From Lophium mytilinum (Eukaryota): a DNA stretch of 64,000 nt. The notes under the pieces are model-generated. The model searched no databases. It saw nothing but the letters and a program-made list of their open reading frames with translations, and had not been told where the DNA came from. The translations under genes and the position numbers were made by a program. Numbering within the stretch: position 1 is the stretch's first letter; every line of letters starts with the position of its first letter. Positions 3,001-45,458 of the stretch are shown piece by piece. The DNA lies in assembly GCA_010093605.1 (NCBI GenBank), contig MU004186.1, forward strand, positions 17,765 through 81,764. Direction: 5' to 3'.

Positions 3001-5775
3001 AAGTAATTAGTATTTTATAGAAATTAAGTAGGTAGAAACTTTACTAATATAGTAATATTCCGCGCTAGATAGTTAATAGAGTAGAGTTTATTCTAGAATC
3101 TCTATATTATTATTAAGTACTAGTACTAATACTTAGCCTTTTTAGATATTACTATAAGATAGTAGTATATAAATATTAGAAATATTATTATATAGGCCTA
3201 GAATAACTATCTATTCTTTACTACTTATGCCCGGAATATAGACTAAGTATTTAACTCTTTTACTAAGGTATATCTAACTATTATACTATATAACTCTATT
3301 AGTACTATTTTAGATCTACTATACTACTATACTCTTACCCGCCTATATTAGAAGTATAAGAATACTAACTATATACTAAAGAGTTATAAGTAGAAATAGC
3401 TTATAAAAAGGGCGCGTAGTATTAGTAATATAATACTAATTAAGTAATAGCTATATAATAAGGTGCGCTCTAGTACTATATATACTATCTTATTTTATTA
3501 TACTAGTACTAACTCTCTATCTAAGCTATCTAATACTAATAATAATAACCCTAAGCCTAATACTAAGTAGTAGAACTGCTTTAATTAGAATCTTACTTAA
3601 GGTAAGCGCTAGTATACTATATTTAATACTCTTAGTCTAGGTATATTTATACTAGTTTTAAGCTTAGTTATTTCTAATATCTAGCTAGAGTAAACCCTAA
3701 CTAAGCTATAGTTTATAACTTTTCTACTTCTTCTTAAGAAGAAGTTTTAAGCTATAGTATATCTAGAAGAGCTAGTTACCCTATTTATTACTACTGCCCT
3801 TTCTAGGGTAAATTCTTCTCCCCGCTAGCTACTATTTAAGAATATATTAGAAGAGAATATCTTTTTTATTAGTAGTTTTGCGCTTATAGTAGAAGAGTTA
3901 TAAGAGAAGCTAGAGCTTCTATCTAGAAGTACTCTATGCCTAATATAAAGTAGATTAGTTACTTCTAGTTAATATATAATATTTAAATCTATAATACCTA
4001 ACTATATAATAAAATTATAAGTTTAATAATCTATTTTAATCTTTATTACTATATATAGCTTTCTACTACTATATATATATACTAGTAAGAATAACTAGAT
4101 AAACTATAATATTCTATTTCTTATAGGTTATCTACTTTAGTAGATTAAACCTTAAGTTATAACTATTAAAGAGTTAGATAGGCTTATTACTATCTATAAA
4201 GATATTATAAAATCTATATTCTATCTTATTAGAGAAGCTAGCTATAGAATTAAGTAGAAGGTTATAAATATAGTAGATTTTAGTATTACCTAAAGGTAAA
4301 AGCGGCTAATTATTATTATAGCGCAGTAATTTAAATTTTAAACCTATATTTATAATATAAACTCTAATAAATTCTATTTAGTTGCGGGACCCTACTACTA
4401 CTATTCTTAAAATCTACCTATAGAGTGCCCGGGTCTAGGCTTAAGTATTTTAATTTAGAGCCTTTTTACTTATACCCTATAATAGATAATTATTATTATA
4501 ATTTAAAAGCTAAGGCTAGGCTTTATAATAAGCCTTATAACCTAAAAACTAAGATACTTCTAATAATAATATATAATAGGGGAGATAACTAGTATTATAA
4601 TAGATAGAGAAACTTTACTATCTAGAAATTTATATATTTATAAGACTTTTAAATTAGGTTTTACCTTACTAGAAGCCTAATAAAAGTATTATATATAGTT
4701 AGTAACGCTTAGCTATCTACTATAGCTAAGGCGGTCTTTAAATAAGTTAGGTATACTCTAGAAGTATTTAATAGAGGTAAAATTAGTAGAGAAAATATAC
4801 TATTACCCTTTAATATTAAAGAATCTAACTTCTAGAAACCTTATTATATTTAAAGATAATAACCTAATAAAACCTAATTAGTATTAATTCTTTAAATAAG
4901 AAGGTAAAACCCTCTTTATTTTCTTTATTACCTAGTAGTTATATAAAATCTAAATAGTAGTTATTTAGAGAATTAAGTACTTTATACTTTAAGTATTAGC
5001 TTTTAAATTATATATTTAGATTTTAATAAATATTCTATTTCTAGAGTAGACCCGGCTACTCTCTAGCTTAATATTTATAAAGTAACCCCCTAATACTTTT
5101 AGGCTCTTAAATAAGTAGATATAGAAGTAGCTTCTCTATTAGCTCTCTTAAAGGCCTTAAACTTATTAATTTAACTAATAACTCTCTACTAACCTTTTAA
5201 AAGTTCTAATTAAGTAGCTCTATAAGCTTTTCTTTATTATTAGAATAGCTTAGTTTCTAAAGCTTACTAATAATATATACTCTATCTAGGGTTTCTAGTT
5301 ATACTCTTTTCTCTCTATAGGCTACTATAATAAATTAACTAAGCTTATCTCTAGCTCTAAGTATAAATAGATATATAGTTTTATTTTTAATTAGTAGCTC
5401 TATAGGTAGACCTTATATTAGATTTTTAAAAGAGCCTTTATTTCTTTCTAGCTCTATATTATACTACTAGGTATCTTTCTACCTTCTTAAGGTTACTAAA
5501 TATATAGACTTAACTAAAGATTAAAGTAACCCTCTATATATAGGTAGAGTATACTTATAAAGTATATAATATATTAAAGTTACTATAATATAATTAATTA
5601 TATTTTTTATATCTCTCTATATATTAGTAGCTTAGCGCTATTAGTAATATTTACTTATCTTTCTTTCTTCTACTTCTACTTTCTTTATCTAGTAATTTCT
5701 AGTTTTATCTTTTATATTTAAAGTTATTTAAAGAGTATTCTATAGACTATATAATACTAGTACTCTTAAAAGTAG

Positions 5776-5945
5776 CCTAGGTAGAGTTTATAGTATATAT
5801 TTAAATACTATTCTTAGAAGCGGACCTAGTAAAGTTTATAGTACGCGTTTAAATACTATTTTTAGAAGTAGATCTAGTAAAGTTTATAGTATATATTCTA
5901 TTACTACTCTCTACTATAGAGTTAATCTAGTAAACTTTATAGTAG
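5776..5945. repeat. 48-bp tandem repeat, 3-4 RIP-mutated copies
   Basis: AGTTTATAGT recurs at 5785, 5833 and 5881 (48-bp period), with CTAGTAAAGTTTATAGT...TTTAAATACTATT shared between copies. Confidence 0.75.
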
Positions 5946-7379
5946 CTACTCTCTATATACCTATAGTATACTCTACTTATATTAATATAGATATAGGGCC
6001 CTAATACTATATCTTAAATATCTAAATTCTAGCTACTTACTATATAAATTATAGTTAAGAGCTATATATTCTATAATATTAAACTAGATTAAGTATAACT
6101 AGTATATTATTACTATTATATAGAGAAAGATAGATATATTTTTAAAGTTCTCTAGATAGTACTAGATAAAGCTAATAAGCTCTTTATAATAATAATTAGC
6201 TTTCTTTAAATAAATTTCTACTTACTACCTCTAAAGTAGTAGTAGAGTAGCTCTTTCTAGGCTTCTCTTCTCTAGTAAATCCCTACTAGACTTAAGCTAA
6301 TTTCTAATTATATACTTCTTCTCTTAATCTTTAATCTTCTAGAGTACTAGAATTTTAAGAACCTTAGCTCTATATATAGAATAACTTAATATATATATTA
6401 CTATATATACTTAGATATATAGTTATCTAAATATATAATAGTAGAAGAGAATAATTACTTTATATCTATATTTAGATTTATAGTACTACTACTTATATAT
6501 TTAATACTATCTCTATAACTAGATTATATTATACTCTATATACTAGATTATAAAGCCTACTAGTAGATACACCCTCTTTTTAAGTTTTAGTAGGGTTAAG
6601 ATACTAAGTCTAGTAGTAGTCTTATTAGTTAAAACTAATACGCCCTAGTTATTCTATATATAAGAGAATACTATATATCTAACTAGAAGTACTACCTAGA
6701 TAGTAATTAGCTAGGGGTATTTATTTAACTACCTATTTCTTTCTTTATTACTAGAATTTACCCGCTAGTATATTACCTTATATAGAGTAGTATAGGCTAT
6801 AATAAAGGTATAGTAGTAGTAAAGTATTCTTATATATTGCTTATTATACTCTATAACTTCTATTTTAATAATTCTCTCTATATTATAGTAGTAAGCTTTT
6901 CTATCTAGTAATTTCTCTTCTAGCTATAGAGTTTAGTATAGCTAATAAAGGGGCGTAGTAAGAATAGAAAACTAACCTAATATTTAGAAGCTACTAAGTA
7001 AGATAGATAAAAATAATATAAGCTAGTTAGTTACTATTTATACTTTCTAGTTTAAAGGGTTTATATACTTATTAAATAGACGCTATAGAGAGCTAATATA
7101 ATTAGAATACTATATCTCTCTATATAGCTAGTTATCTAGATATAGAATATACTAATTAAATAAGCTACTAGCTAAAATTATTAAGGCTAAAGGTATTAAT
7201 ATATCTACTAAAAGTAATAATATAGTAACTATACCGCGGTAGAATATAAAGGTTAAGAGTAGTCTAGTTTATAAGCTAAAATAATTCTTAGTAGTAGTAC
7301 TAATCTACTCTATAACTAATTTCTATAAGCTTTACTAACTATATATATACTATTTATAGCTTTAACCTTATTCCTTTTT

Positions 7380-7515
7380 TTTAGTAATTTCTATTACTTT
7401 ATATAGCTTTACTAACTCTATTATTTAGTACTTTCTATTATTTTATATAGCTTTACTAACTCTATTATTTAGTAATTTCTATTATTTTATATAGCTTTAC
7501 TAACTCTATTATTTA
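7380..7515. repeat. ~44-bp tandem repeat x3
   Basis: TATATAGCTTTACTAACTCTATTATTT occurs three times at ~44-bp spacing. Confidence 0.8.
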
Positions 7516-10224
7516 CTTTTAATTTTCTCTACTTATTTTTATAACTAATAACTAGAAAGAGGCTTAGTTTTACCTTAAAAAGGGTTATAAAGCTAAATTC
7601 TAAGTAATATATTTACCTCTATATAAGTTAAACTTAACTCTACTAGTATTATATAGTAGGGGGCTTATAGATAGAATTAATAATATTTATATATTAAGAG
7701 ATAAATTCTTATAGAATTATAATATATATAGAGGGCCTAGATATATTTAAGCCTAAAGTAAATATATAACTTATAGGGGCCTTATAAATTTATAGCTTAT
7801 AAGGCGCTATATAGAAAGAATATATATAGTTTTACTATTAAGCTATATAGTTTTACTATAAGCTATCTATTTACTATAGATACTTTAGTTACCTTATACT
7901 ACTTCTTCTATTAAAGAGTTTAACTCTAAATCTATATAGCCTTATTAAAATAACTCTAAAACTCTATAGGGAAAAAAATAAAAGAAATAAAGAGTACTAT
8001 AGTATATATAGAGTTATATATTACTAGTAAAAGCTATATATAAAAGTAGTATTAAATTTAAGTTTTAAATACTAGCTATTTAGTATAGATATTTATATCT
8101 TATATAGAGAGTTTATAATATAAAAAGTTTTATATTATTACTTTAAAGCTCTATTTCTATACTACTAGCTTTCTATAGAGAGGCTATATATAGTTATACT
8201 ATTAATTTAAGGTTCTAGCGCTAGTAGTAATAGTAATACTCTATATACTTATATATAGAGTATATATATAGCCTACTATATATATAGTAAAATTTAAAAA
8301 GACTTCTAATCTATAGTATAGAATACTACTATAGTTATTTAATAGAGTAATTACTATACTCTACTAGTAGGTTAGAGTAGATAAAAGGGCCTATAGATTT
8401 ATAATAATTATCTATTATAGAGTAGAGTTTTCTAATATCTATCTTAGATTTAGCTATCTTCTAAGGTTACTAAATATATAGATAGGTATTATTATATACT
8501 TTTTACTACCTTAGATTTAAATTCTAGTATATATATATTTTTCTTTTTACTTCTTATAGTATTATATTAGCTTTTAGTATATATAATATAGATATAGAGG
8601 CCTCTAAAAAATATTAATAATATAGGCCTTTATATCTAGTAGATAATATACTTATAGAAAGGCTATATATAGTATTACTATAGTATTATATAGTCTTTTA
8701 TTATATATAATATCTATAGAGGGCCTATATTCTAAAAAGAAAGTATAAAATAGAGGTAATATAATTATTCTTAGATCTTATAGTATAGAAATATCTTTAA
8801 TAGCCTTTTAGAGCCTTTAGAATCTTAGTACTACTATTTAAATATTTATATATATAGTATTAGGAGTTATACTAATATTATCTATATATATATTATATTA
8901 TTATTATAATTTAGTAGCTAGTAGCTATATAATCTAGTAGTAACCCTAATTAGATTTCTAAGTATAAGAATCTAACCTAGGCTCTCTTAGCTTTTTCTTC
9001 TCTATACTCTACTTCTTTAAAAGGTTTTAAATAGAAAAAGACTTAAAAGTATCTATACTCTTACTACTTAATTACTTATAAGTAGAATATTATATCTTTA
9101 AAAGCGGGGTAGATATTATAGTACTATAATAAGATATTAAATAATACTAAGCTATTACTCTTTAGTATATTATTTATAAACTATTCTACTATAATAGAAA
9201 ATATATTAACTAATTCTAGAAAACCTCTATAATTATCTAGCGTAGTTATATTTTTAATATTTACTTAAGCCTATTCTAAATATAAGAAAATAATAAAGTA
9301 ATTTATAGATATATATAAATAAATATAGAAGCTAAAAGATAAAAGAAAAAACTACCTAAGTTATTATAGAATAATTATATAATCTAATATAAGATAGAAT
9401 TTATTAACTACTATAATAAGTTCTTTAAAAATAGAAATAAATCTATTTTATATAATAAGTTTTATAACTCTATTAATAAGTATAAGTTTAAAAAATAGGT
9501 TCTTAACCTAGAAAGTCTTAAGCTAGTACTTAAGTAAACTATAACTACTTTAAACTTAACTATATTTACTCTTTCTATTTACCGCCTACTACTATCTTCT
9601 ATAGAGTTTAGTAACCTAAAGTAGACTTATAAATCTCTTTTTTAGTAGCCTTTAAGTATAGCGTCTATACTAGAAAGTAGGCACTTTTAAATATTACTAC
9701 TCTCTACTCTATTCTAGAAACTAAAAAGTAAGCTAACTCTATTTACTATAAGTGCGGTTTAGTTATATTATAATATAAGGTAAGTTACTAACTAAATATT
9801 AGGCTAAGAATAAAAATAATTATTCTAAATTAAAGGCTAGAATATATAGATATATAGATAAGAAGGCTTACTATAAAGTAAGATCTAAAACTTATTTATA
9901 AGTATATAGATAAGATTACTCTAAAGTAATAACTATAATCTATAGTTAAATAAATAAAAGAGGCCTTTTTTAAGGGTCTATAGATAACTATAAGTATAAA
10001 AATATAGTTAAGGCTAGAGATAGATATATATAGCCTCTTTTATAGAAAATATTAGTATAATATATAGATAGATATATACTAACTAAGTAAGTTATATAGC
10101 TAAATATATAGTATAAATTATATATTTTAAAAGAGGTTAGTATTTTTAGTATAGAAAGGTAGTTAAAAGAAGAAGCCTAAAAAGAAGTAGTACTATATAT
10201 CTAGTAGCTATTTTTTCTTTTTAT

Positions 10225-16810: not shown

Positions 16811-17002
16811 CAGAGCCGCTCTGGTTCTGCCCAGACTACCGCGACCTCGACTAGCTCGCTGCTCCCTTCGAANNNNNNNNNNNNNNNNNNNNNNNNNNNN
16901 NNNNNNNNNNNNNNNNNNNNNNNNNNNNNNNNNNNNNNNNNNAGAGCCGCTCTGGTTCTGCCCAGACTACCGCGACCTCGACTAGCTCGCTGCTCCCTTC
17001 GA
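16811..17002. repeat. ~60-bp sequence repeated on both sides of an assembly gap (collapsed tandem repeat or scaffolding overlap)
   Basis: AGAGCCGCTCTGGTTCTGCCCAGACTACCGCGACCTCGACTAGCTCGCTGCTCCCTTCGAA is identical before and after the N run. Confidence 0.7.
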
Positions 17003-19396
17003 AATACATGCATGGCTCGCGCCGCAAGGTCCGTACCGCGCCGCAGAAGGCGGCTCTATCCAGATGTAATTTTTCGTCGTTCGTCGTGTCATCGACATTC
17101 ACGCCCTCGAGATCACTACAAGATAGGCCAAGCTTTCCTCAACAGCCATCTGGAAGTTTGCGACATCGACGCAGCAGACATGTACGAGCATCACCTATGT
17201 ACGATGTACTCTTCCGTTCAATCTTCTCATTTGACGAGCATCCCGATCAACAACATTTGGCACCCTGGAGAGGCTGCCACGACGACAAAACACTACGGCG
17301 TCTATGCAGGCAGAGCCCAAACCTCAAGAGTTAAAGTCTTCGTGGGTTGGTGAGGCCCAGCATCCCTCTTTAGCGTTCGAGCAGAGCGTATCCTGGTGCG
17401 TCGCACCTAACCTGTGGACCCCACGGGGAAGTTCTCGCGTTTTCATGGCTAGCCACCCACTCGCGGACTACATCCTCTCTTCAAGTGAACAGCAGCTGTA
17501 GCGGCCAGCAGTACGGACCGATACAGTCAGACGAAGCTGTCTCGAGTGGCCAACGCCCAGCTACTCCAATCATCTCTCACTGGCAGGTGAGCAGGTCGCA
17601 TTCTGAGATCCGTCTCCTCTAGGTATAGAGCCCTGCGTCTATCATACCTTGACGTGACCTGCGTGTCTGAAATGGTCTCATCATACTAGCTCTGTCTCCA
17701 CAGCTGCACATTTCCTTCAACTTCGACGTAAGAGACTCACGCCAAGCACAGAGGACCCCGCTGGCTCATCTTCGTATTGTCTACCATCAGTTTGCTTTTG
17801 AACAAGCTGATTCCCATTACATTCAGCCGACCCAGCCCAAAACCCCATTCCAAACACGACATCCACATGGTAGTATGACGTATCAAGATCAAGTCACGTG
17901 ACCAGAATTGAGTACCGCCAGCCACCTTCAATACCCTTTGGCCAAGCGATTGCTTCTGGATCGAATCGGCATCTTATTCTCAACGTTCAAACCAGGGCAT
18001 GGACTCACTATACCTCCTGCCTTTCATTTAGACGGCCGTTTCGAAGAGCAGCAGAAGCTGCATGCATATGCCAGAGCCAACTGAAATTCGATGCTACATG
18101 CAACGACTCGTGCTAAGTACGGACACCAGAGATCCACGACGCTTTCCTTCCTTTCCGCATCGAACACACCCCACTACTCAGTAAAGCTGTCATTGGCCTA
18201 CTCGGGGAGAGTTATCGTGAAAACAGCGAAGCTGAAAACGTTTCCAACCCACCGCAAATTTCACCTCAACACGAGATGTTGTCGCACCAATTACGGGACG
18301 CCATTTCGAACACGCTGACGCGAAACATATCGTCGACATCATTGCGAATCATTGCGTCCGCACTAGGAAACCCCAATGACCAGATCATTCGAGCGCCACA
18401 CTCTCACGATGACTGTATGCCTTCGCCTACTAACTACATCACTGCATCACCTCCACCTCAGCCATGGGACATCGAAGCGTGAGCCGACAAAAGGGATTGA
18501 AACACAAAAATGTGTTTGGCTAGCTATCAGAAGACAACATACTCGCGTCGGAAGTAACATGCCAACACAGCCCGTCTCTGCGCCATGAAACGACCGTCCT
18601 ACTATCTCTCGAAGACTCACCTGCTGGTGTACAGAGCGCCAAAGTCTGGTGTGAAAGAGCCTCTCGTGAGAAGACCTTGACCGCCAGCGCACCATCAACA
18701 CCATGAACTCGAACTCACACGAGACCAGACTACCAAAGTCAGAAGTCACGTGACAGTACCTCCGATCTCATATCGGGTTTTGAGGATCAAACACGGAGTC
18801 GCAGTATCAAGGAGACAACTGCAGCTGCGTCTAGTCACTCTGGCTATCATAATCTTCCATAGAAAATTGCATCCTCTTACTGTGTCGTTCATAGAGACCG
18901 CGCCACGTCAAAGCACTGTCATTGAGGTTCGATCCAAGACATCGACTAGAGTTTAGCCGAGCTGACTGATAGGTACCATGCCTGATTCGAGATCCATACA
19001 TCACAGTACACCCAGCCTGTCCAGGCGGCCCCAGCTGAGAGCGGGCCTAATGCAAGATGAGCTGGCCTGGCTGGGTGCGCTACGGTGGCGTCGGGAGCAC
19101 GCAACAAATAGGTCTCTGTGCGGCCTTGCTTCTCAAAATGAAACGGCCCCAGACATAGCCTATAACATACTTCACACGCAATAATCGACCATCCACATCC
19201 ATACGCGCAAATCGAGCAGAACTCACGTGATCCCAGCAATGAGCGACCTACCCCAGCCATCACCTACTGCAATAGCAGAAGCAGGAGAAGGTCGAACGCG
19301 AGGTGTGGTTTGCAAATGTCAACGGTGCGTCAAATCATCATCCATGCTGTGAAAAACCTGACGATTGATAGCAAATTTCAAAGACCTTGACGGGGT

Positions 19397-31281: not shown

Positions 31282-31860
31282 ACCATCTGGACCCCAAGCC
31301 ATCGTCACAGGCCTAGAAAGTAACACATACAGCCTAGAGAACCTCGTTGCACCATCTGGAGCCTCAGCCAACTGGGGCGCGAACTATCGCCACATATTCC
31401 CAAACCCAGAGAGTGACACAGACAGCCCAAGGCTTCCCCATAACGATCTGGATCCTCAAACTTCTAGAACATCAACCATCTGGAGCCTCAGCCAACTGGG
31501 GCGCCCACTATCGCCACATATTTCCACCCCAGAGAGTGACACAGACAGCCCAGAAAGCCGACGTTGAATCATCTGGAGCCTCAGCCAGATGGGCCCCGAA
31601 ACAGCGCCACATATTTCCACCCCAGAGAGTGACACAGACAGCCCAAGGCCCCTCCATACCGATCTGGACCCTCAACCCTCTATGATATCAACCATCTGGA
31701 GCCTCAGCCAGCGGGGGACATGAAACATCGCCACATATTTCCACCCCAGAAAGTGACACAGACAGCCCAGAGAACACACGTTGAACCATCTGGACCCCCA
31801 GCCATCGTCACATATTACCACCCCAGAGAGTGGCACAGACAGCCCAAGGCCCCTCCATTG
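31282..31860. repeat. Tandem array with 217-bp higher-order periodicity
   Basis: A(C/T)CATCTGGA(G/C)C starts at 31282, 31351, 31475, 31568, 31691 and 31785 (units 69, 124, 93, 123, 94, ~75 bp). Shared core is CCCAGAGAGTGACACAGACAGCCCA. Confidence 0.9.
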
Positions 31861-32718
31861 AATACATGATACTAATGCCCTATCTGCAGCCTTGCGCCAG
31901 CGACGTTATGGCAGGCTGCAGACCTGTTCTAGCCACCACTCTTTTCGGCAACAGAAACACCTGGCACAGCGCTCTCCTCTGCCATAGACTTCACCAGCAC
32001 GGAACTCGGACGACATGGATGAAGGAGTGCGAGCGCTCAGATCGAGAAATCGGCGTGTAGCTTGGACGGAGGAGAGGGCAGGTAACGAGGCAAGGCTGTA
32101 GAATACGAATGAAGGATTGAACAGTTGAGAAGAGAATATCATACTTAAATATTCTCGAGTCTTTATTGCTTCCTTAGTTCTAAGCCACCCCAAACTCCTA
32201 CACAGCCTTCTTTGGCGCTGGTTATGCACATTCACTGGACTGGGTTTCATGTATCAAACGAACAGTTTTCGCCTCTTTTGGAGTTCTGTATTACGGCGTA
32301 ATTGCATGTGAAGTCGTATTTTCGTCGTGAGGCTTGGCAGTCTTGGCGTGGCTGCGGGAGGCTAACCCAACGTCAGCCCCGCGTCCCCAACCTTCCCTCT
32401 TCACCCTCTCAGCCACTGGCATACTTAAATACAGCTTCTTTTTTTTTTGTTTTTCTTAGCGTTTCTCGCGAGCCGCGACCCTAGACGGAGGCGATTCGTC
32501 GCTCGATGTCTTTGGGCGCGGTTTCGGCTTGATCCAAGTCTCCTTGCGAAGTTTGCTCGCGAAGGTGTTCCCAATCTCGTATGGGAGGACTGAGCATACG
32601 TAGCAAGGGAATTAGTGACAGCACTATTCAGACTCTAGTCTAGGCAAGCCCGTACTCGAGTTCTAGATCTCTATTCACGAGACATCAATTTTCGTTCAAC
32701 CACTATCCAACCACCAAT

Positions 32719-35717
32719 ATGGCGACCTTTGCACAATTGCGGGGCGAATTCTACGTCTGGGCCTTCGAACGTGCAGCCCACTGGGAAACTGCTCGGAAAC
32801 CCAGACTTCTGAGCTGGTTTCACACGCTGGCGATTCCAATCATCATCCTCTGCATCTGGGGACTCTTCCTCACGTCTGGTCACACGGAACCCGCACCAGT
32901 CGATCTATCCACGCCCTCGATCCCGCAACTCTCGACTTTTGAAAGTCTTTTGCAAGCAGTCCATCTTCGCAGCCAACCAGACTTGCCCGTCGAACCAGAA
33001 ACCCACGAGCCCGTGCCTCTAGATGTGCTCTGGACCCTCAGCACCTACAAGCCAGCAGCAGACGCCGTTATCGAGTTTTACGTAGGATGGTTATGGTGGA
33101 AAATGGTCGATGCCGTCGCCCTGCTGGTGGTCGGATTCTTTTACTCGCTTCGCTGGAGGATGGCTTCGGTCCTATATCGGCAAGGCAGCTTCGACAAGTA
33201 AGTCGAAACGATCATTGCTCTCAACCTACTAGTGCTAATTGTTCCAGGCGTACGTCAAAGCGGAAAGGAATGTATGCGAACGATGAGACGCTCACCATCC
33301 TACGCCAATTGTTCCCAGACCAGAACTGGCCGAATAAGATGAAGCCCACCGAGCTGAACAATCAGCTTCGAGACATCCTCAAAGTCAGCGGAACCAACAT
33401 CCGCCGACCACAGCTCACAGGATCATCCTCAACGGTAGCTGCCCTTCCTCTGCTGCAGCAAGAGACCTCTGCCCCCGCCAAAACCTCCGCAGCAATAGAA
33501 GGCGTCCTTCCTCATCACAGACCAGCCTCCGTCATGCCATCCTCTTCGACGTTAGCCTTCTCCTCGCAGCAGAAGCATGCAGCGAATCTTGCCGCCAATA
33601 CAGCCTCCACGTCCCAAATAATGGACCCGCAATCTACCAATCCACCCGCAACAACGTCCTATATCCACCAAAACACACGCACCTCGCCAGCTCGCTCAGA
33701 AACAATGCAATTCCCCGAATCGGACGGTCTCAGCAATACCCTGCAGTACGGCGACGACGAGTCTCCTGTCCAGCGAGTGATCGTCGACAAGGGCAAGGCG
33801 AGGGCTACAGACTCACAAGTTCAAGAACAAGAACGCAGTCACAGACCATGGCGCAAGCCGGTTTCCGCAACTGATCCGAGGTCTGATAGTCCATGGGAGG
33901 AAGAGCAGTCTCAGCCCGAATACGAGGACTCAGAACAAGAAGAAGAAGAGCCCACCGCGAGACGGAGACCAGGCAGAAAACCAATCACATGCGACAAGTG
34001 CCGCGTTGATAAGAGAAAGTGCAGCAAGACCCAGCCTTGTACATACTGTCAGGAGTGGGATGTCGAATGCACGTGGAATGTTCATTTTTCGAGAAATCAC
34101 TTGCTGAAGGTGTACGTCGACAGAAAAAATGGATCTGTCCCCGAAGAAGAGCACCAACCGATCGACGATGAAGCATCGAGACATGACTCTCGTGAGTTCG
34201 GATCATCACCTCCACATCCTGAGTCAGTCGAAAGCGTGTCCAAGCGACGTTTAGACGGAAACTCCCACTACGAACTCGATGCACCGCCTATCAAGAAGCC
34301 TCGACTCCAGACGTACGCCACTTCTCGGCGGACTATTCAAAACACGCCCGTGGTCGACAGCGAGGCAACAGACCCCGATCTTTCACCCTCTCTCAACCAG
34401 CTTCCCTCGTCAGATGCTTCCAGCATACACGACACCGTCACCGTCCAGCCTCCGCCTCCTGCGAGACGACATGTCACTCAATGGCCCTCAGGTTCAGTTA
34501 CAAAGAGTGGTTCGGGTATCCGCAAGATGGTGAAATCTAACGGAAAGGATTCTCTCATGAAAAAGGCCGTTCTCGCAAATGCAACTCTCCGCAACACCGC
34601 CAAAAACGCACCTGGGCAAAGTCACCAAATCCCGTCTCCTCTCGACGGCGCCGACCCTTACTCGCGCCTGCCTTCGTCTCAATTGTTTTCTGAATACATT
34701 CCGGGACTTCAATCCGATCCATCTGAGGACAGTACGCAAGACAGACGCCGTTTCAAGACTCGAAACTCCCCACCAGCCAGTCGAGCCCTCCTACATCAAC
34801 ATTCTACGGAGTTCATGCGAGCTGCAGAAGAGGACGTCCGCAGGCGGATCGAGGCCAGGTTAGCAGAGGAGCTAAAGCAACCGATAGAGAACATCTGCCG
34901 CCCGTCTCTCGTCGCACTTCAATCTGACTTTGACTCGTGGCGTCCGACTGCAATCATGGCATGGGTTATGCTCCGCCCATTCATTCCCAATCTCAAACCT
35001 TGGGGCATGCTCATTCGACAGACCATATTCGACACGAACGGACCGGAAGTCTTCGACGGCCATTGCATCGAGAACCCAGCTCAGGCCAGATGGCTTACCC
35101 GACTCCGCTTCTTCTGCGCAGGACATAAACACCCATGCTTTGTCCGTTTGCAGACAATTCTGATGCTCAAGCTTGGATGTGGCCTGCTCTCCGAGGAAGA
35201 GTGGACTCACTGGGTCTCCCCCGGGGACTTTGATGCTTCGCATCTATGCCATCGATCCTGGTGTTTCCGCCCGACGTGCATGGTGGTGGAACCAAAGCAA
35301 TCGAATCTCGCAAGGACCCGTTGCTGTGCATACAAGGAGTGCGTGTGTGGACTCACGCCGCGTTGCCGTATCGAGCTCTTCATTGAGAAGAAGAGTGTTG
35401 TTCAAGCAGCCACTGCGACTCGAATCGAACATGCAAACGTCTATCCGCTGCAATGCCCATATACTCATTGTCGTGGCAGCAAATTTGCAACGCTAAACAA
35501 GTTGCTGGAGCATTGTGTCAAACGTCATCCGACCTTCGAAGGTGAGGCTTTGTGTCCTTTCGAAGAGTGCAAGCGAAAGAATGCGAAGAGCTCTCAGAGC
35601 TTATTCCACCACGCGAGAGATTCCCACAGACTGTATGATATCTGGGAACAGGCTCATCTTTACACTCGTCTCCTCCCACCGTCGCTGCGTCGCGATGAGG
35701 ACGAGCATCCAGTTTAA
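32719..35717 (+). CDS. ~982-aa protein: N-terminal hydrophobic segments + Zn2Cys6 binuclear cluster + His-Cys box (His-Me finger, I-PpoI-like) endonuclease + two C2H2-like zinc fingers
   Basis: Exons 32719-33197 and 33248-35717 are joined in frame by a GTAAGT..CTAAT..CAG intron. Motifs: CDKCRVDKRKCSKTQPCTYCQEWDVEC (33990-34070); ASHLCHRSWCFRPTCMVVEPKQSNLARTRC..CVC....C (~35230-35370); CPYTHC..H....H and CPFEEC..H....H. An alternative start at ATG 33270 is possible. Confidence 0.8.
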
Positions 35718-39113: not shown

Positions 39114-39216
39114 ACAGGGAGGTCCTGGGGGAGGTTCTTAGGAGGTCTGCAGGAGGGTTGCGGGAGGTCCACAGGAGGGCTACAGGAGAGTTAAAGGAGG
39201 GTTACAGGAGGTTTCG
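39114..39216 (+). repeat. Degenerate ~11-bp G-rich tandem repeat (CAGGAGGGTTA-like, ~9 copies)
   Basis: GGAGG-like motif recurs every ~10-11 bp directly after the RING-UBL stop codon. Confidence 0.7.
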
Positions 39217-40021
39217 AGACGTGGATTAGGTAATCAATATGGTTTGGGAGCTCCTCACTTTCTCTATGCTCGTTGCAATGCCATTACTTGGTTTATTTTG
39301 AACAACGTCTGATTGGTGGTGAGGATTGTGATTATTTTGGCTGTGGTGTTGGGGATCTTGGTGGGGGTGGCGTTGTGGCTGAGAACCACGCGCTACCGGA
39401 GTAATAGATCTTGCGACGCCCGGGAGATATAAACATCTACGGAGCCTTTCACTTCCAATTCTTTGCACCTCTTGTCCTGAGCTCTGCCAGCGTCCTGAAG
39501 GCAAACCTCGCGCCCTCAAATCATCAACGCAACGCGGCTGCACCGCAACGAGCCAACTTGCCTGCGATTGAAATCTTCACCTGAAGAAGGTATATCATCC
39601 GTCGTGTCCACGACTTCGAGCGGTTCCGCAACTCGTAGCGGAGGCAACCAAAGATCTGGGTTCGACGAGGACTTTCTTTCACGTTAGAACTCAAACGTAC
39701 GGCTGCGTTTACAGTCCCAGCTTGCACCGGGGTTTCGAAAGCCGTCGTATTATGCCACTGGCGGAACTTTTCAAAATTACTTTTATTAAAGACACCCGGC
39801 ATCGACTCCCACGGTTTTTCACTTGGCTCTAGCGCTCAGAAAGCGCGAGTGACGTCATTGTTCATCAACAGAAAAATTTTCTCTTCTACCTCACTTCGCT
39901 CGCCTTCAACAGCACACTCCTACACCTCCAACACCAACTCCAACACCTCCAACACCTCTTCACCACCCTTGTTGCATGAGCACACACTCCTCTCTCTCTA
40001 TCTCTTGTCGCTACAAGCAGC

Positions 40022-43000
40022 ATGTCGTCGTCCGACTACGCCGCTGCGCGTAGCTACAGCAGGTCCACCGCGGTGTACCGCAACATCCACGCCGGTCATC
40101 GTGCTCGTTACGGCGCTCCCATCAAGGCCGAGGAGTACGAGGAAGAACAGCACGTTCTCGACTTAGATGGCGAGCAAAAAGCACCCGACACCGAGTACGA
40201 CGCTCTCGAAGAGGCTTTGAAGCAGAAGGTAGGTCTCACCTGGACCGCTGCCGTCTCTTTCCAGGTCCAGATCGACGCCGAACACCGCACCGGGTTCATA
40301 TACCCCGGCGACCTTCCAGACGTCGTTGATGCTGCGGCCCGCACGACTACAGACATTGAGGCTGCAATTGCTGCGCGAGCTGCCGAGCATGAGGCTGGGG
40401 ACATCAACCTGCCTCGCGTCAATCCTCGACGCGCCCGAGTCGCGGAGCGGGTTGCTACTGCCATCGCAGAAGAAGTACCCGCTGCACCAGCCACTCATGC
40501 CAATATCCCCGCTGAGGAAGAGGGTCTCGAGTCCACTTCAGAAGAGGCAGCGTCTCTCCCTCTACCAGTCACTCGTCCGGGTTCCCCCACTTCAGAAGAG
40601 GCAGCGTCTCTCCCTCTACCAGTCACTNNNNNNNNNNNNNNNNNNNNNNNNNNNNNNNNNNNNNNNNNNNNNNNNNNNNNNNNNNNNNNNNNNNNNNNNN
40701 NNNNNNNNNNNNNNNNNNNNNNNNNNNNNNNNNNNNNNNNNNNNNNNNNNNNNNNNNNNNNNNNNNNNNNNNNNNNNTCAGAAGAGGCAGCGTCTCTCCC
40801 TCTACCAGTCACTCGTCCGGGTTCCCCCACTTCAGAAGAGACAGCGTCTCTCCCTCTACCAGTCACTCGTCCCGGTTCCCCCACTTCAGAAGAGGCACCG
40901 TCTCTCCCTCTCACTGTTCGCTCTGCACCAGTCACTCGTCCCGGTACACCCGTTCAAGATGATACGGCCGCCACCGCAGAAGAGCCACGTTCGCCCTCCC
41001 CTACCTTTCACTCTGCACCCGTCACTCGTTCCGGCTCCCCTACTGGAGAAGAGACGCCCTGCGGTGCACAAGAGCCTCCGTCCCCCACTGAGGTATCCCC
41101 CTTCTTTGGACGCAAAGGCAAAGGACGCGCGACTGAGCCACCGGAAGAAGCAGAGATGCCCACCGGAAATGCTTCCGCTTCGGGCGAGCCGCAAGAGGAA
41201 GACACCGGAAGTGCTTCCGGCTCGGCAGACCCGTCAGGTGACGAGCAGAATGGCACACCTCTGTACGCCTTGTACTCGGTGGGAAAGATCACGAGAAATA
41301 GGGAGGTCATTACGGATGACGACGAGTTCCTTCCACCGGATCCGGTCAAAGACGCAGAGGTGACCACCGCAGAGGATGGCGGACGTAGGGGTCGACCTCG
41401 CATCACCCTCGAGGACCTGCAAGTCAAACGAAACCCGCTGCACTCGGCCGTCACGGTCAACTTCAAGACCTTCCGCAACTTGGAAGATCTCACGTATTGC
41501 GCGTTAGTCTTTAAGTCATACTTTGTCGACAACTCGCACAAGGAGCCCCGTCAAGACTATCGTCGTTTCGACATCCTGTTTGGTGCAGACGATATTGGCC
41601 GCCCAGACGACGCCGGGTCTTTCAAAACTATATCCTGTGAAACCGTCTCAGACGCCAGCAACATCCACCTTCTGCGCAAACTATTCCCCCACTTGTCTAG
41701 GGAATACTTTACCGAGCTCATTGACGAAATGACCACAGATAACGATCTGTATCTTGTCAGGCTTCACTGGAACCCAGACAAGGTATGGGCTTCTGGTCTC
41801 TGGGGGACAGACTCTTTGCATGATGTAAAGGGTCATCTGCACGAATCTCTGCGAGTGGTCCTCCGTCGCCCCACCACGTTCAACGTGCTGGTTCGTAGCC
41901 GAGACATGACGTCCGAAATGGACAAAATGGCCACGATCATGTCTCGCCAACGAGCCGTCAACCCCTACCAGAACTTCTGGCTGGATGCTGCAAATCGTAG
42001 AGGCCACTTCCCCGGCCTCGGCAACATGTGTGCGCGCGAGACCAGACCTTCCGTTATCGCTCCCCAGCGGAACAGCTTCCCCAGCTTCTATGAGTTCAAG
42101 ACGGCGGCCTCGGTTCACATCGTGAATCTCTATGAAGTCGAGCAAGCTGCTACAAAGGAGTGGTGTGCGACTGCATTCGCCATCCCTATCCCATTCATCG
42201 ATAACCATCAGAAGATCCTTCTGGTTATCAAGGCTCCAGGGCAGACCAACGACGATAATCAGCTTCTGAACGCCAAGAAGCTGCCACAGCTCGGTCTTGG
42301 AGACACAATTGAATTCCAAATGGGGATTGACACGGTCATGGGGCCTAACATGTGGAAAGCCACCGTGGTTGAGGACTCCGTGGTCTCGCCCTTCGACACC
42401 ATCACTCTGGAAGCACGGCGCCCAATCGACAAAGAGACGAAGGAGTTCATCGACATTCCTTTCCCTATCCCGTCCGAGACCCTCCTCGATCGGCGTATTG
42501 AGCATGCACGCCCAGTCGTAGCCAAGAACATGCCCGAGTTCACCATCACGGCGTGGAAAAAAGGGTCCAGCACCATGTTTAAAAAGTACCTGAATGGCTT
42601 GCGGAAACTTGAACCCATACTTGAGGACCAGACGACGGTTCCCATCGAGTACGAAGCAGCAAAATGGCGACGACAGTTCCTGACCGGCTCAGACTTCGAG
42701 GACATCCCCCGCACCGGCCTCAAGGACCTAGTGCCAGAAGAGATGCGCGAACGCGCTCTGGCTCTCGCTCTCGATGGCGCGAAACCCTCGACCCGAGAGG
42801 CTATTCTCTACCTCTGGGAGAATGGACTAGTCGCCCGCAATGGTCAGATCACTGGTGGGCCCGGAACCGGCAAGACGGACGCGCTGATTCGACTTGCGAT
42901 GGCATTGCAAGGACAAACCTGGTGGCACTTCTACGCGCCCGACCGCCTCACCGGGGCCTTAGAGACTCGCTACGGTTCCGCAGACGCACGTATTCTCATC

Positions 43001-45046
43001 GTCTCAACCGAGAATGCGACATGCGACGACATCTTTGAGAAGATTCGTCCGCGCCTTCGCCATGCGAAACAGCAACTGCTTCCCCATCTAACCCGCGCAC
43101 CAGTCATCGCGCGCGTCCACTCCATCAAACTAGAACTCGCAATCTTCGACTTCGTCAAAGACGAAGATAGTTTACGTGAGAGCCTCCCTGATATTCATGG
43201 AGACGAGTACGTCCAAGAATACCTGGCGGCAACGAGAGCTGGAAAGTCAACCGCAAACTCTATGATTCTTCATGATCACATCCGCACCAACACCAAAAAG
43301 TATGGCATGACCGACCGGAGAATGACTATTCCCAAGGAATCGCTAGGATACATCGCGGGTGGCTTGATTGGCATCCACACGCTACCCGAGGGTCTAGAAT
43401 TCCTCTTCAACCAGGCGGTTGCGGATCAGTTCGCCTTCTTGATAATCACTCACGGCAATCTACATGCGGACCCCCCCATCCAGCCCCAGGGACAAGAGCG
43501 CATCGATTACAAGAAAGGGAAGATGGATTTGTTTGCTGCGACCCTCGCCCTCGTCAATACTGCAGTCTGTACGGTATCAACTGCGATGGACAACCTCCTG
43601 GTCGAGCGCTCGGCGCATTTTATCGGTGTCGAAGAAGCTGGCCGCGCGCATCCGCGAGAGATTCATGCTCTAGAAGGCTTCTACCCCGCCTCGAATATCA
43701 TCCAGACTGGCGACCATCTTCAGCTAGCTCCCGAGGATATGATCTCGAACCGAGAAGATGGCTTCGCTGCACAAGCTAGCTTGTCAGAGCTGCACCGCCA
43801 ACTCATGAATGGTCTCCATACTCCCGTCATCCAGGAGACAAGCAGATTCTACAACTCTCAAGTCGCGGAAGTCTCACGGATTTTCAATTCGAGCCTCGTC
43901 CCAGACGAGAACATGCTCGCCAAGGTTCCCGACAAGGCGTGGCGAGACCTCGCACGCGATCTGACGGGCCTCCCAGAGGCAGACGCGTACATGATAAACA
44001 CTGAGGATGCGGCTGCCATAAAGAATGCCTCCGGATCCAAGTACAATACCCTCCACGCAGTGATAGCCATGAACATTTTAGAGCGCGCTATCGTCGTCTA
44101 CGACATCAAAGGCTCCGATCTGCTTTACCTGTCGCCATACCGTGGAGCCGTCGAAGTGCTACGACGTTTGATTTTCCATATGATCAACTTGGCCGATGGT
44201 TTCGATGATGGCCCGCTCGTCAAGTTCGCAAACGGCCTCAAAGAAGTCGCGTCACAGATCATGACTGTCGACAGCGCCATGGGTCGTGAGCGACGATACG
44301 CCATCTTTGACACCACAGTCTCCGGTACGCGAGGCTTCACTGACGATCGTGGTCGCCTGAACGTTGGATCGACCCGTGGACGAGCTGGGCTGATCGTCAT
44401 CATGGCTGTGAACGCTTGTCAGAAGTACAGGTCCCCAGATGGCAAGGCGTTTGACGAGATTATCCAGCACTTCCGGATCAATAATCGCCTCTTCACCATG
44501 TCGCACGCGCAGCGCGCACAGCTCCGCAGCTACGACGACATCCTCAGCTCCATGGGGCTGTGGCCGCTGAAGTTCCCCGGCAAGAAAGGCCCGAACTTCA
44601 ACGACTGGAGCAAGCATCTCGATGCCCGTGACTCCCTCGCCGAGCGCAAGCGACGCAAGGTAGACGATGACGCTTCAGACCCAATCCAAGAGTGGGCAAA
44701 GGGCGATACTCCCGCAGAGGATGAGACTGATGCGAACGACGTTGATTCGGGCAACAACACGAACGACGCTGATTGGGGCAACAAGACGTCAGGGAATGCG
44801 AACGACGCTGATTGGGGCAACAAGACGTCAGGGAATGCGAACGACGCTGACTGGGGCAACAACACGTCTGCGAATGCCAACTCTGGCTGGAACTCTACAG
44901 GGGTGGACGATCAGGGTTTCAACACCGCTGATGTCGATCTTGCGAAGCAACAGTCGCTCGAATCTCAGGCCGAGTGGAATGAGTTCGGCCCTCAATCCAA
45001 TGGCGAGTCGTCGCAGGCGGGTGCGCAGGGTGGCATCAAGTGGTAG
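40022..45046 (+). CDS. UPF1-like superfamily-1 helicase (AAA_11/AAA_12 type) with N-terminal 18-aa repeats and a C-terminal WG/GW repeat tail
   Basis: Intronless 1674-aa ORF spanning a 150-N gap. Motifs: I ITGGPGTGKT (42854), Ia ILIVSTENATCD, II VEEAG, III TGDHLQLAP, LSPYRG, V TVDSAMGRE, VI RLNVGSTRGR. NDADWGN repeats at 44761-44877. Confidence 0.9.
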   Translation: MSSSDYAAARSYSRSTAVYRNIHAGHRARYGAPIKAEEYEEEQHVLDLDGEQKAPDTEYDALEEALKQKVGLTWTAAVSFQVQIDAEHRTGFIYPGDLPDVVDAAARTTTDIEAAIAARAAEHEAGDINLPRVNPRRARVAERVATAIAEEVPAAPATHANIPAEEEGLESTSEEAASLPLPVTRPGSPTSEEAASLPLPVTXXXXXXXXXXXXXXXXXXXXXXXXXXXXXXXXXXXXXXXXXXXXXXXXXXSEEAASLPLPVTRPGSPTSEETASLPLPVTRPGSPTSEEAPSLPLTVRSAPVTRPGTPVQDDTAATAEEPRSPSPTFHSAPVTRSGSPTGEETPCGAQEPPSPTEVSPFFGRKGKGRATEPPEEAEMPTGNASASGEPQEEDTGSASGSADPSGDEQNGTPLYALYSVGKITRNREVITDDDEFLPPDPVKDAEVTTAEDGGRRGRPRITLEDLQVKRNPLHSAVTVNFKTFRNLEDLTYCALVFKSYFVDNSHKEPRQDYRRFDILFGADDIGRPDDAGSFKTISCETVSDASNIHLLRKLFPHLSREYFTELIDEMTTDNDLYLVRLHWNPDKVWASGLWGTDSLHDVKGHLHESLRVVLRRPTTFNVLVRSRDMTSEMDKMATIMSRQRAVNPYQNFWLDAANRRGHFPGLGNMCARETRPSVIAPQRNSFPSFYEFKTAASVHIVNLYEVEQAATKEWCATAFAIPIPFIDNHQKILLVIKAPGQTNDDNQLLNAKKLPQLGLGDTIEFQMGIDTVMGPNMWKATVVEDSVVSPFDTITLEARRPIDKETKEFIDIPFPIPSETLLDRRIEHARPVVAKNMPEFTITAWKKGSSTMFKKYLNGLRKLEPILEDQTTVPIEYEAAKWRRQFLTGSDFEDIPRTGLKDLVPEEMRERALALALDGAKPSTREAILYLWENGLVARNGQITGGPGTGKTDALIRLAMALQGQTWWHFYAPDRLTGALETRYGSADARILIVSTENATCDDIFEKIRPRLRHAKQQLLPHLTRAPVIARVHSIKLELAIFDFVKDEDSLRESLPDIHGDEYVQEYLAATRAGKSTANSMILHDHIRTNTKKYGMTDRRMTIPKESLGYIAGGLIGIHTLPEGLEFLFNQAVADQFAFLIITHGNLHADPPIQPQGQERIDYKKGKMDLFAATLALVNTAVCTVSTAMDNLLVERSAHFIGVEEAGRAHPREIHALEGFYPASNIIQTGDHLQLAPEDMISNREDGFAAQASLSELHRQLMNGLHTPVIQETSRFYNSQVAEVSRIFNSSLVPDENMLAKVPDKAWRDLARDLTGLPEADAYMINTEDAAAIKNASGSKYNTLHAVIAMNILERAIVVYDIKGSDLLYLSPYRGAVEVLRRLIFHMINLADGFDDGPLVKFANGLKEVASQIMTVDSAMGRERRYAIFDTTVSGTRGFTDDRGRLNVGSTRGRAGLIVIMAVNACQKYRSPDGKAFDEIIQHFRINNRLFTMSHAQRAQLRSYDDILSSMGLWPLKFPGKKGPNFNDWSKHLDARDSLAERKRRKVDDDASDPIQEWAKGDTPAEDETDANDVDSGNNTNDADWGNKTSGNANDADWGNKTSGNANDADWGNNTSANANSGWNSTGVDDQGFNTADVDLAKQQSLESQAEWNEFGPQSNGESSQAGAQGGIKW

Positions 45047-45458
45047 TGGTGTCACAGGTGATGAAGGTATGACGGAGAGTATAGATTGCAAGGCCTATCC
45101 TTGAGTCTTCGAGTTCATGGTTTGTAGTTCAAGAGCCTCTCTTAGGAGGGTTTCGTAGTGACACAATGAACTCCTTATAGTTGAAACAGCTGCCAATGCA
45201 ATTGTTTAGTGAAATGACAGAGTGTTTGTGTTGCATTCTATTCGCTTGAAAAGTCCAAAACTCCATGAGCACGGCGCAGCATGATGGCGAGATACGAACG
45301 TGGACGTTTTGTGCAGGCCCTCAAATTCAGTGACTGCCGTAACCAAATCCTACAGCTTGAAAACTGTTCCTCACTACATCCTCACCACACTCCTCCCACA
45401 CCCTTCTCACGCCCTCTCACGGCCCCTCCACCAATTCGCGCCATTGTCTAACCTGTCA

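Follow-up and report, generated by a model that had tools for sequence, protein, structure and literature searches.

The stretch of Lophium mytilinum DNA analysed here (64,000 nt of contig MU004186.1, hereafter the window, to whose positions all coordinates refer) contains one long open frame that raises a question about its product: has a helicase acquired a docking element built on tryptophan (Trp) at its C-terminus and, if so, which partner does this element bind? The frame (40022..45046, + strand) comprises 1674 codons plus a stop, including 50 X that derive from a run of 150 N. Its translation outside this gap is identical to the public 'hypothetical protein BU16DRAFT_310758 [Lophium mytilinum]', and it is 62 residues longer than the public gene model (P0002, 1612 amino acids). 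Based on its motifs, its profile matches and its predicted fold, we describe the protein as a divergent UPF1-like helicase of superfamily 1B (SF1B), with a predicted 5'-3' type polarity, which ends in a disordered tail with seven Trp. On balance, we favour the view that this tail is a selected docking element, i.e., a multivalent platform of Trp motifs. Argonaute would be the likeliest single partner, by analogy with other silencing proteins, although we put this identification forward tentatively.

All superfamily 1 (SF1) motifs, which a first-pass annotation of this DNA had called recognisable but divergent, were located in the Lophium protein (the query):

42824..44593, + strand: SF1B helicase core, RecA1 (helical insertion) followed by RecA2 (Pfam, profile, fold and motifs)
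42854-42877, + strand: Walker A, GGPGTGKT (motif)
43004-43030, + strand: motif Ia (motif)
43622-43648, + strand: Walker B, IGVEEAGRA (motif)
43706-43732, + strand: motif III, TGDHLQLAP (motif)
44264-44290, + strand: motif V, TVDSAMGRE (motif)
44354-44383, + strand: motif VI, RLNVGSTRGR (motif)

The Walker A lysine, the Walker B glutamate, the motif III glutamine and the motif VI arginine are all kept in the query, and the helicase is probably catalytically active. Down to an E-value of 0.1, its only Pfam matches were AAA_12 (E 1.8e-11) and AAA_11 (E 1e-6), with no UPF1 CH domain and no NF-X1 finger, and no Dna2, nuclease or MOV10 domain was present among the Pfam matches of the query and 35 relatives. 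Profile and fold rankings against solved structures, in which MOV10, SDE3, Hrr1 and SAD-3 had no entries, were used in place of a tree with named helicases. While the query as a single sequence matched UPF1 chains at an E-value of about 1e-3 (phmmer), the family profile placed UPF1 first (E 4e-65, 223 bits) and Chaetomium SETX and Sen1 second (E about 1e-47 to 1e-45), followed by ZNFX1 (E 7.5e-44, 153 bits), IGHMBP2 (E 5e-41), Aquarius (E 5e-35) and DNA2 (E 1e-33). An AlphaFold model of the last 1200 residues, built on 56 sequences, reached a predicted local distance difference test score (pLDDT) of 79.9 and a predicted template modelling score (pTM) of 0.83. In Foldseek, UPF1 was also the top match of this model (E 2e-28, template modelling score 0.62-0.79 normalised to the target, with 15-16% identity in the structural alignment), with SETX, Sen1, DNA2, IGHMBP2, ZNFX1 and Aquarius following in this order. 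Pfam, profile and fold thus agree with the earlier proposal of a UPF1-like SF1 helicase devoid of CH and NF-X1 fingers, and both the profile and the predicted fold indicate that the core is nearest to UPF1, not to ZNFX1 or Aquarius.

The Walker B motif of the query reads VEEAG and aligns opposite the IDEST of UPF1 (phmmer), and can therefore be read as a Walker B in which glutamate replaces aspartate. The first-pass annotation had linked this EEA form to the ZNFX1/Hrr1/Aquarius branch. This held for Aquarius, since an Aquarius-like protein reads LMEEAGQ, and it stands as general background for ZNFX1 and Hrr1, which carry an EEA Walker B. As a sign that the query belongs to that branch, however, the motif was misleading, because the family profile and the fold put UPF1 first. 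The ZNFX1/Hrr1/SAD-3 and Aquarius proteins thus resemble the query in their Glu-Glu-Ala Walker B, whereas ZNFX1 and Aquarius score under UPF1 and SETX/Sen1 with the profile, and the query contains neither NF-X1 fingers nor Aquarius domains. Within the family of the query, a 35-member alignment conserves GPSGSGKT, QNxTVD, EEAGRA, GDxxQLxP, TxDSxMG and VAxTRAR, and more distant matches mostly have DEA at Walker B. Because EEAGRA is conserved throughout this alignment, the EE Walker B is, judging from these sequences, a trait of the inner clade. UPF1/NAM7, the helicase of nonsense-mediated decay, is the best profile and fold match and has in common with the query a 1B-type barrel and a stalk, but the query differs from it in lacking the CH zinc domain, in its EE instead of DE Walker B, in a pleckstrin homology (PH)-like N-domain and in its tail, and it is not an ortholog. 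DNA2, which has an N-terminal PD-(D/E)XK nuclease with an Fe-S cluster, ranks below UPF1, SETX and ZNFX1 with the profile, and the query has no nuclease or Dna2 Pfam match and no conserved cysteines.

A HMMER pass with the last 1200 residues over 1.84 billion representatives retrieved 178 proteins at E <= 1e-3, 34 at E <= 1e-10 and two at E <= 1e-30, the latter being the query itself and P0003 (27% identity, E 4e-63). Since the only match below 1e-30 other than the query is as distant as this, the query does not represent a core helicase as its single-copy ortholog; such orthology was a finding that, according to the first-pass annotation, would undermine its proposal. A word-index protein search gave back only the query when run with its helicase part, and the query plus unrelated helicases when run with the family alignment. 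A search with P0003 yielded seven close relatives, one of them named as Cenococcum geophilum (68% identity), and this sister lineage includes several paralog-like copies with 62-94% identity. The nearest ESM-Atlas clusters were eukaryotic AAA_11/AAA_12 helicases, in which Ascomycota was the commonest phylum among the few members with a phylum recorded. Overall, this lineage-restricted family is sparse and fast-evolving and appears to be ascomycete. AAA_12 was matched in 33 and AAA_11 in 32 of the 35 aligned members, no specific accessory Pfam domain was detected across them, and 60 further matches (P0036-P0098) gave no UPF1 CH, NF-X1, SEN1_N, Dna2, MOV10 or Aquarius domain. Five of these 60 distant relatives (P0046, P0072, P0079, P0084 and P0097) contain zf-CCHC knuckles, located C-terminal of the core in four and near the N-terminus in P0084, which hints at a possible targeting of RNA or single-stranded DNA in those branches. 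There are no conserved cysteine columns in the family, on which ground the idea of an iron-sulfur (Fe-S) client was rejected.

Downstream of the core, the following elements bear on the docking question:

44645..44659, + strand: basic patch RKRRK on a low-confidence helix, just upstream of the disordered tail
44669..45043, + strand: disordered tail of 125 residues with 7 Trp (pLDDT about 28-36, model residues 1076-1200)
44762..44878, + strand: three in-frame copies of a 39-bp unit encoding NDADWGNKTSGNA
45041..45043, + strand: C-terminal Trp codon (terminal KW)

The basic patch may resemble a nuclear localisation signal. In the disordered tail, Trp codons start at 44693, 44774, 44813, 44852, 44888, 44975 and 45041, i.e., three amplified Trp units and four single Trp sites. 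Tandem Repeats Finder reported a period of 39 with 3.1 copies and 93% matches at 44760-44881, and the three units, which the first-pass annotation had placed one base too early (44761-44877), are followed by SGWN, AEWN and the terminal KW that it had also reported. The first two copies are identical in DNA, which indicates that the amplification is recent. Over the 164 residues past the conserved core there are nine Trp (5.5%) vs 1.07% family-wide (binomial P = 7.8e-5), and an excess is also obtained with the three repeat units taken as one (P = 7.6e-4). This region has a net charge of -15, and its consecutive Trp are spaced by 15, 29, 27, 13, 13, 12, 29 and 22 residues. The flanks of six of the seven disordered-tail Trp consist for 70-100% of G/S/N/D/E/T/A/Q, and those of the terminal Trp for 60%.

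The Trp of Argonaute hooks are typically several in number, with about 10 residues or more from one to the next. By sequence criteria the tail is Argonaute-hook-like, as had been suggested, with Trp in a disordered region, small or acidic flanks and a spacing of 12-29 residues. One preprint uses Trp in a disordered region, together with negative patches, as the criterion in a screen for Argonaute-pocket ligands, and describes the SF1 helicase SDE3 as binding AGO1 via Trp of its C-terminal disordered region (bioRxiv 10.1101/2025.10.18.683247), so that the precedent invoked by the first-pass annotation is in print. The query and SDE3 are both SF1 helicases of the UPF1-like group with Trp in a negatively charged, disordered C-terminal region. 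On the other hand, the query has none of the N-terminal Pfam domains specific to MOV10/SDE3, only the generic core being common to both, and its Trp motifs are tandemly amplified and include a terminal Trp; Argonaute binding is attributed to it tentatively. Argonaute platforms are defined, in another study, by reiterated WG/GW units of which composition alone is conserved, and what the repeat units of the NRPE1, SPT5L, GW182 and Tas3 platforms keep is likewise said to be no more than a Trp next to Gly or small residues and an overall composition (PMC2910046). The query resembles these platforms in this respect but has only three amplified units and four single Trp sites, carried on a helicase, and its Argonaute partner is putative.

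Trp in acidic or polar tails were also recognised by eye in P0003, P0007, P0014, P0016, P0018, P0049, P0054, P0057, P0068, P0128, P0089 and P0076. A disordered-like tail of at least 50 residues was present in 26 of 139 mapped relatives, with at least two Trp in 14 and at least three in eight of these long tails. P0128, from a distant clade, has eight Trp 7-18 residues apart and ends in Trp. On an 88-row core tree, the 14 Trp-tail carriers, the query among them, require 12 changes, and the trait is therefore scattered over the tree, as far as these sequences go, and not inherited as a block. In the sister lineage, P0003, P0161 and P0166 share three Trp columns with diverged flanks, and P0166 ends in Trp. 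This conservation is limited by the gene models of the same lineage, since those of P0163-P0165 end before the tail and those of P0162 and P0167 inside the core. After the three conserved Trp, P0003, P0161 and P0166 also have a hydrophobic-acidic motif, DLN[LI]A[AS]IFDD. Trp makes up 31% of the aromatic residues in the relatives' tails, but 16.5% of those in disordered-like parts elsewhere (odds ratio 2.26, P = 5.6e-6). Tandemly amplified acidic units are also found in the tails of P0015, P0043, P0077 and P0016, some of them built on phenylalanine (Phe; FKPDDES x5, GFELNAAQPT x8), and tail amplification may therefore be regarded as a habit of the family, not peculiar to the query gene.

The last residue of these proteins provides a second signal. 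Trp closes the sequence in 15 of 149 relatives vs an expectation of 1.07% (P = 1e-10), which makes it the second commonest last residue, and nine more relatives have Trp within the last five residues (24/149 in total, P = 9.5e-7). The 11 terminal-Trp rows of the tree, including the query, need 11 changes. By sequence, the terminal KW of the query belongs to this family pattern. Whatever the partner, this enrichment is a clean, mutable signal that points to a specific reader.

Based on these observations, we propose a scheme in which a disordered N-terminus with tandem repeats would be followed by a PH-like domain, a 1B-type barrel, a stalk, RecA1/RecA2 (with EEAGR), the basic patch and the 125-residue disordered tail. 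The tail would act as a multivalent platform of short linear motifs, each an isolated Trp with small, polar or acidic flanks, 12-29 residues from the next; three of these Trp stem from the recent 39-bp triplication, and the protein ends in Trp. Through this platform, the helicase would be held to a partner with Trp-binding pockets, putatively a fungal Argonaute of the QDE-2/SMS-2 type, as for the GW tail of plant SDE3, and the helicase would then act on target RNA bound by RISC (RNA-induced silencing complex) as an accessory silencing factor. The open frame, its motifs and fold, the predicted disorder, the enrichment of Trp and its recurrence in relatives, and the cover by probable RNA are what the data show; catalytic activity, polarity, the function of the motifs and the identity of the partner are inferred. 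Taken as a whole, the proposal of a probably active helicase that is tethered to a fungal Argonaute by its Trp tail is the one we favour, as a possible rather than a probable account.

Several points weigh against it. Proteins such as ArfGAP and SCY1-like proteins use Trp motifs for other partners, and a terminal Trp is, to our knowledge, not a feature of Argonaute hooks. Many close relatives have no tail at all, and nine of the 26 long disordered tails are without Trp. The absolute Trp frequency in the relatives' tails (2.1%) only marginally exceeds the 1.4-1.6% that these proteins have in their remaining disordered-like segments (odds ratio 1.42 with P = 0.03 under one mask, 1.30 with P = 0.08 under another). 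A tail that is not conserved in homologs had been named by the first-pass annotation as a ground for refutation. The outcome was mixed, in that Trp tails recur in 14 of the 26 and three columns are held in the sister lineage, while no close orthologue of the query itself was found. Moreover, P0015, P0077 and P0110 have Phe-based acidic repeats instead, which would agree less well with Trp-specific Argonaute pockets than with a general acidic-aromatic motif. The sequencing run that bears on expression, X3, is labelled RNA by guess. Composition-based WG/GW screens, according to one study, also return ArfGAP and SCY1-like proteins (PMC2910046).

The scarcity of tails and the marginal Trp excess also suit a neutral origin, in which slippage amplified a Trp-bearing unit and composition alone, without a specific partner, gave rise to the Trp pattern seen in relatives. 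The identity of the first two 39-bp copies in DNA and a second, unrelated tandem array at the protein N-terminus fit this explanation as well. It does not readily account, however, for the 15 of 149 relatives that end in Trp, for the preference for Trp among aromatics specifically in tails, for the three Trp columns held across divergent flanks in P0003, P0161 and P0166, or for the six separate Trp sites that the query has beyond the amplified one, and we regard neutral low complexity as rather unlikely. If the tail were neutral, the gene would be one more orphan helicase.

The terminal Trp and the Phe-based repeats bear on another alternative, in which the same helicase docks a different reader with aromatic pockets, such as CAF40/CNOT9 of the CCR4-NOT complex, Cia1-Cia2 or another Trp-motif reader. 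Docking to CAF40 would direct the bound RNAs to deadenylation and decay; the parallel is HELZ, in which CCR4-NOT binding maps to the C-terminal region. HELZ is, like the query, a UPF1-like SF1 helicase, and it recruits an effector complex directly, CCR4-NOT being bound without intermediary according to the report on it (PMC6769256), but it is a metazoan protein, and a CCR4-NOT link of the query would be putative. CNOT9 pockets that bind the Trp motifs of GW182 are also reported in the literature, and the Phe-based acidic repeats of some relatives would suit less Trp-specific readers. The strong enrichment of terminal Trp is a further point for a reader of this kind. We found only one receptor for a C-terminal Trp in print, the targeting complex of cytosolic iron-sulfur assembly (CIA), whose motif is [LIM]-[DES]-[FW]-COOH (PMC11974842, PMC10623007). 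The query ends in IKW and thus has the hydrophobic third-last residue and the C-terminal Trp of this tripeptide, but a lysine where aspartate, glutamate or serine is expected. None of the 15 C-termini of relatives that end in Trp matches the motif, VDW being the closest, and D, E or S is next to last in only three of them (ADW, ASW and VDW); in addition, the family has no conserved cysteines to ligate an Fe-S cluster. Altogether, we hold a reader other than Argonaute to be a fairly unlikely option.

A further alternative draws in part on the regions upstream of the core, listed below; the 468 residues that precede Walker A were modelled on their own (pLDDT 82.4, pTM 0.75):

40022..41443, + strand: N-terminal low-complexity region with no Pfam match, which holds the 54-bp tandem array
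about 40538-40921, + strand: 54-bp tandem array with the unit SEEAASLPLPVTRPGSPT, interrupted by the N run at 40628-40777
41447..41959, + strand: family-specific N-domain, PH-like beta-sandwich (middling fold matches, Z 5-6.8)
42155..42568, + strand: beta-barrel of the UPF1/SETX/Sen1 '1B' type (Foldseek, VIA)
42572..42823, + strand: helical segment between barrel and RecA1, read as stalk-like (model)

Residues 2-172 of this model gave generic PH-like matches (Avo1 PH, Z 6.8; Rtt106, 6.3; Tfb1 PH, 6.0), and the PH-like nature of the N-domain is assigned with low confidence. With residues 238-375, matches to the UPF1, SETX and Sen1 barrels were obtained (Foldseek E 6e-5 to 1e-3, VIA Z 5.6-6.2). 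With a PH-like domain, a 1B barrel and an EEAGR core, UPF1-like helicases would gain a new domain combination.

Acidic tails that end in an aromatic residue, such as those of SSB, T7 gp2.5 and gp4, and the SQ region of UPF1 act in cis. The tail of the query could do likewise, mimicking nucleic acid and filling the protein's own RNA/DNA channel, or its PH-like domain, until displaced by a partner or substrate. Its negative charge, interspersed aromatics and terminal aromatic residue agree with such autoinhibition, as does the free gain and loss of tails among paralogs, which would be expected of a regulatory add-on, and the PH-like N-domain weakly matches the PH domains of TFIIH Tfb1/p62 in complex with Rad2 and RPB6 (Z 6.0 and 5.5). 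In the full-length model, however, the tail docks neither on its own core nor on the PH-like domain (tail pLDDT about 30), the PH-like matches are middling and generic, and the analogies with SSB, gp2.5 and the UPF1 SQ region belong to general background. We therefore consider autoinhibition in cis improbable.

Returning to the proposed tethering to Argonaute, we know of no Argonaute-hook helicase described in filamentous fungi; a non-exhaustive literature search gave examples from plants, animals and viruses only. Should the tail prove to bind Argonaute, it would provide a direct physical link between an RNA helicase and RISC in fungi, with the tailed and tailless members of the family as natural controls. 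On a wider view, this unrecognised, apparently ascomycete radiation of fast-evolving UPF1-like helicases might have gained Trp tails and C-terminal Trp repeatedly, its members being fungal counterparts of SDE3 that plug into Argonaute, or into an undescribed reader of C-terminal Trp, as variable genome-defence arms against transposons and mycoviruses. We consider this extension doubtful; if true, the gain and loss of tails would track an arms race.

Expression and gene structure were assessed with the contigs of run X3, no listed sequencing run being on record as RNA. They extend over the whole gene:

39471..45082, + strand: extent of the X3 contigs, colinear and joint-free

Three intervals, 39471-40562, 40843-44789 and 44821-45082, are matched by these contigs colinearly and with no joint, which supports the earlier statement that the gene is intronless. 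X3 cover is zero at 45084-45317, where two DNA runs carry on. In a minus-strand gene just upstream of the helicase gene, an X3 contig skips 79 nt with CT..AC ends (39179-39259), i.e., a GT..AG intron, and this joint is the pattern of spliced RNA. Together, these data are a reasonable sign, short of proof, that the helicase gene is probably transcribed and intronless. At both tandem arrays the X3 contigs are interrupted, and the numbers of 39-bp and 54-bp units are therefore those of the assembly, not independently confirmed.

The first-pass annotation had also offered the idea of a decoy for the host Argonaute, which we took to mean the product of a mobile element or virus. Points in its favour are the length and fast evolution of an intronless open frame, the presence of several paralog-like copies in the sister lineage and the 10-kb AT-rich block elsewhere in the window. 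The surroundings, nevertheless, look like ordinary fungal chromosome, with genes for a RING protein, a flavin adenine dinucleotide (FAD) monooxygenase, major facilitator superfamily (MFS) transporters, F-box and ankyrin proteins and a nonribosomal peptide synthetase (NRPS)-like reductase. A search over 9000-64000 detected no inverted pairs, terminal inverted repeats or long direct repeats flanking the gene. A pure decoy would have no need of intact helicase motifs, which the query has. The decoy idea was thus not borne out and seems to us very improbable.

The SEEAASLPLPVTRPGSPT array carries SP/TP sites and sits in the disordered N-terminal region of the helicase. In two DNA runs, short contigs with this unit have 3.8-4.5x the depth of the flanks, and the gap at 40628-40777 therefore probably hides further 54-bp copies. 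Elsewhere in the window, positions 1-10000 form the AT-rich block (GC 0.21-0.26, no large open reading frames), after which GC rises to about 0.46-0.55; the block looks like a repeat-degraded region of the type produced by repeat-induced point mutation (RIP). The open reading frames scanned between about 10 and 33 kb had no Pfam matches. A long open reading frame at 32943-35717 (+ strand) combines a fungal Zn2Cys6 cluster (E 5.8e-7) with a His-Me finger homing endonuclease zinc-binding loop (E 1.4e-7), which is an unusual pairing. Diverged direct repeats 52-97 nt long, from families D1, D5 and D6, are clustered at 31351-31881, and two 61-nt direct repeats, 100% identical and 131 nt apart, are located at 16812-16872 and 16943-17003.

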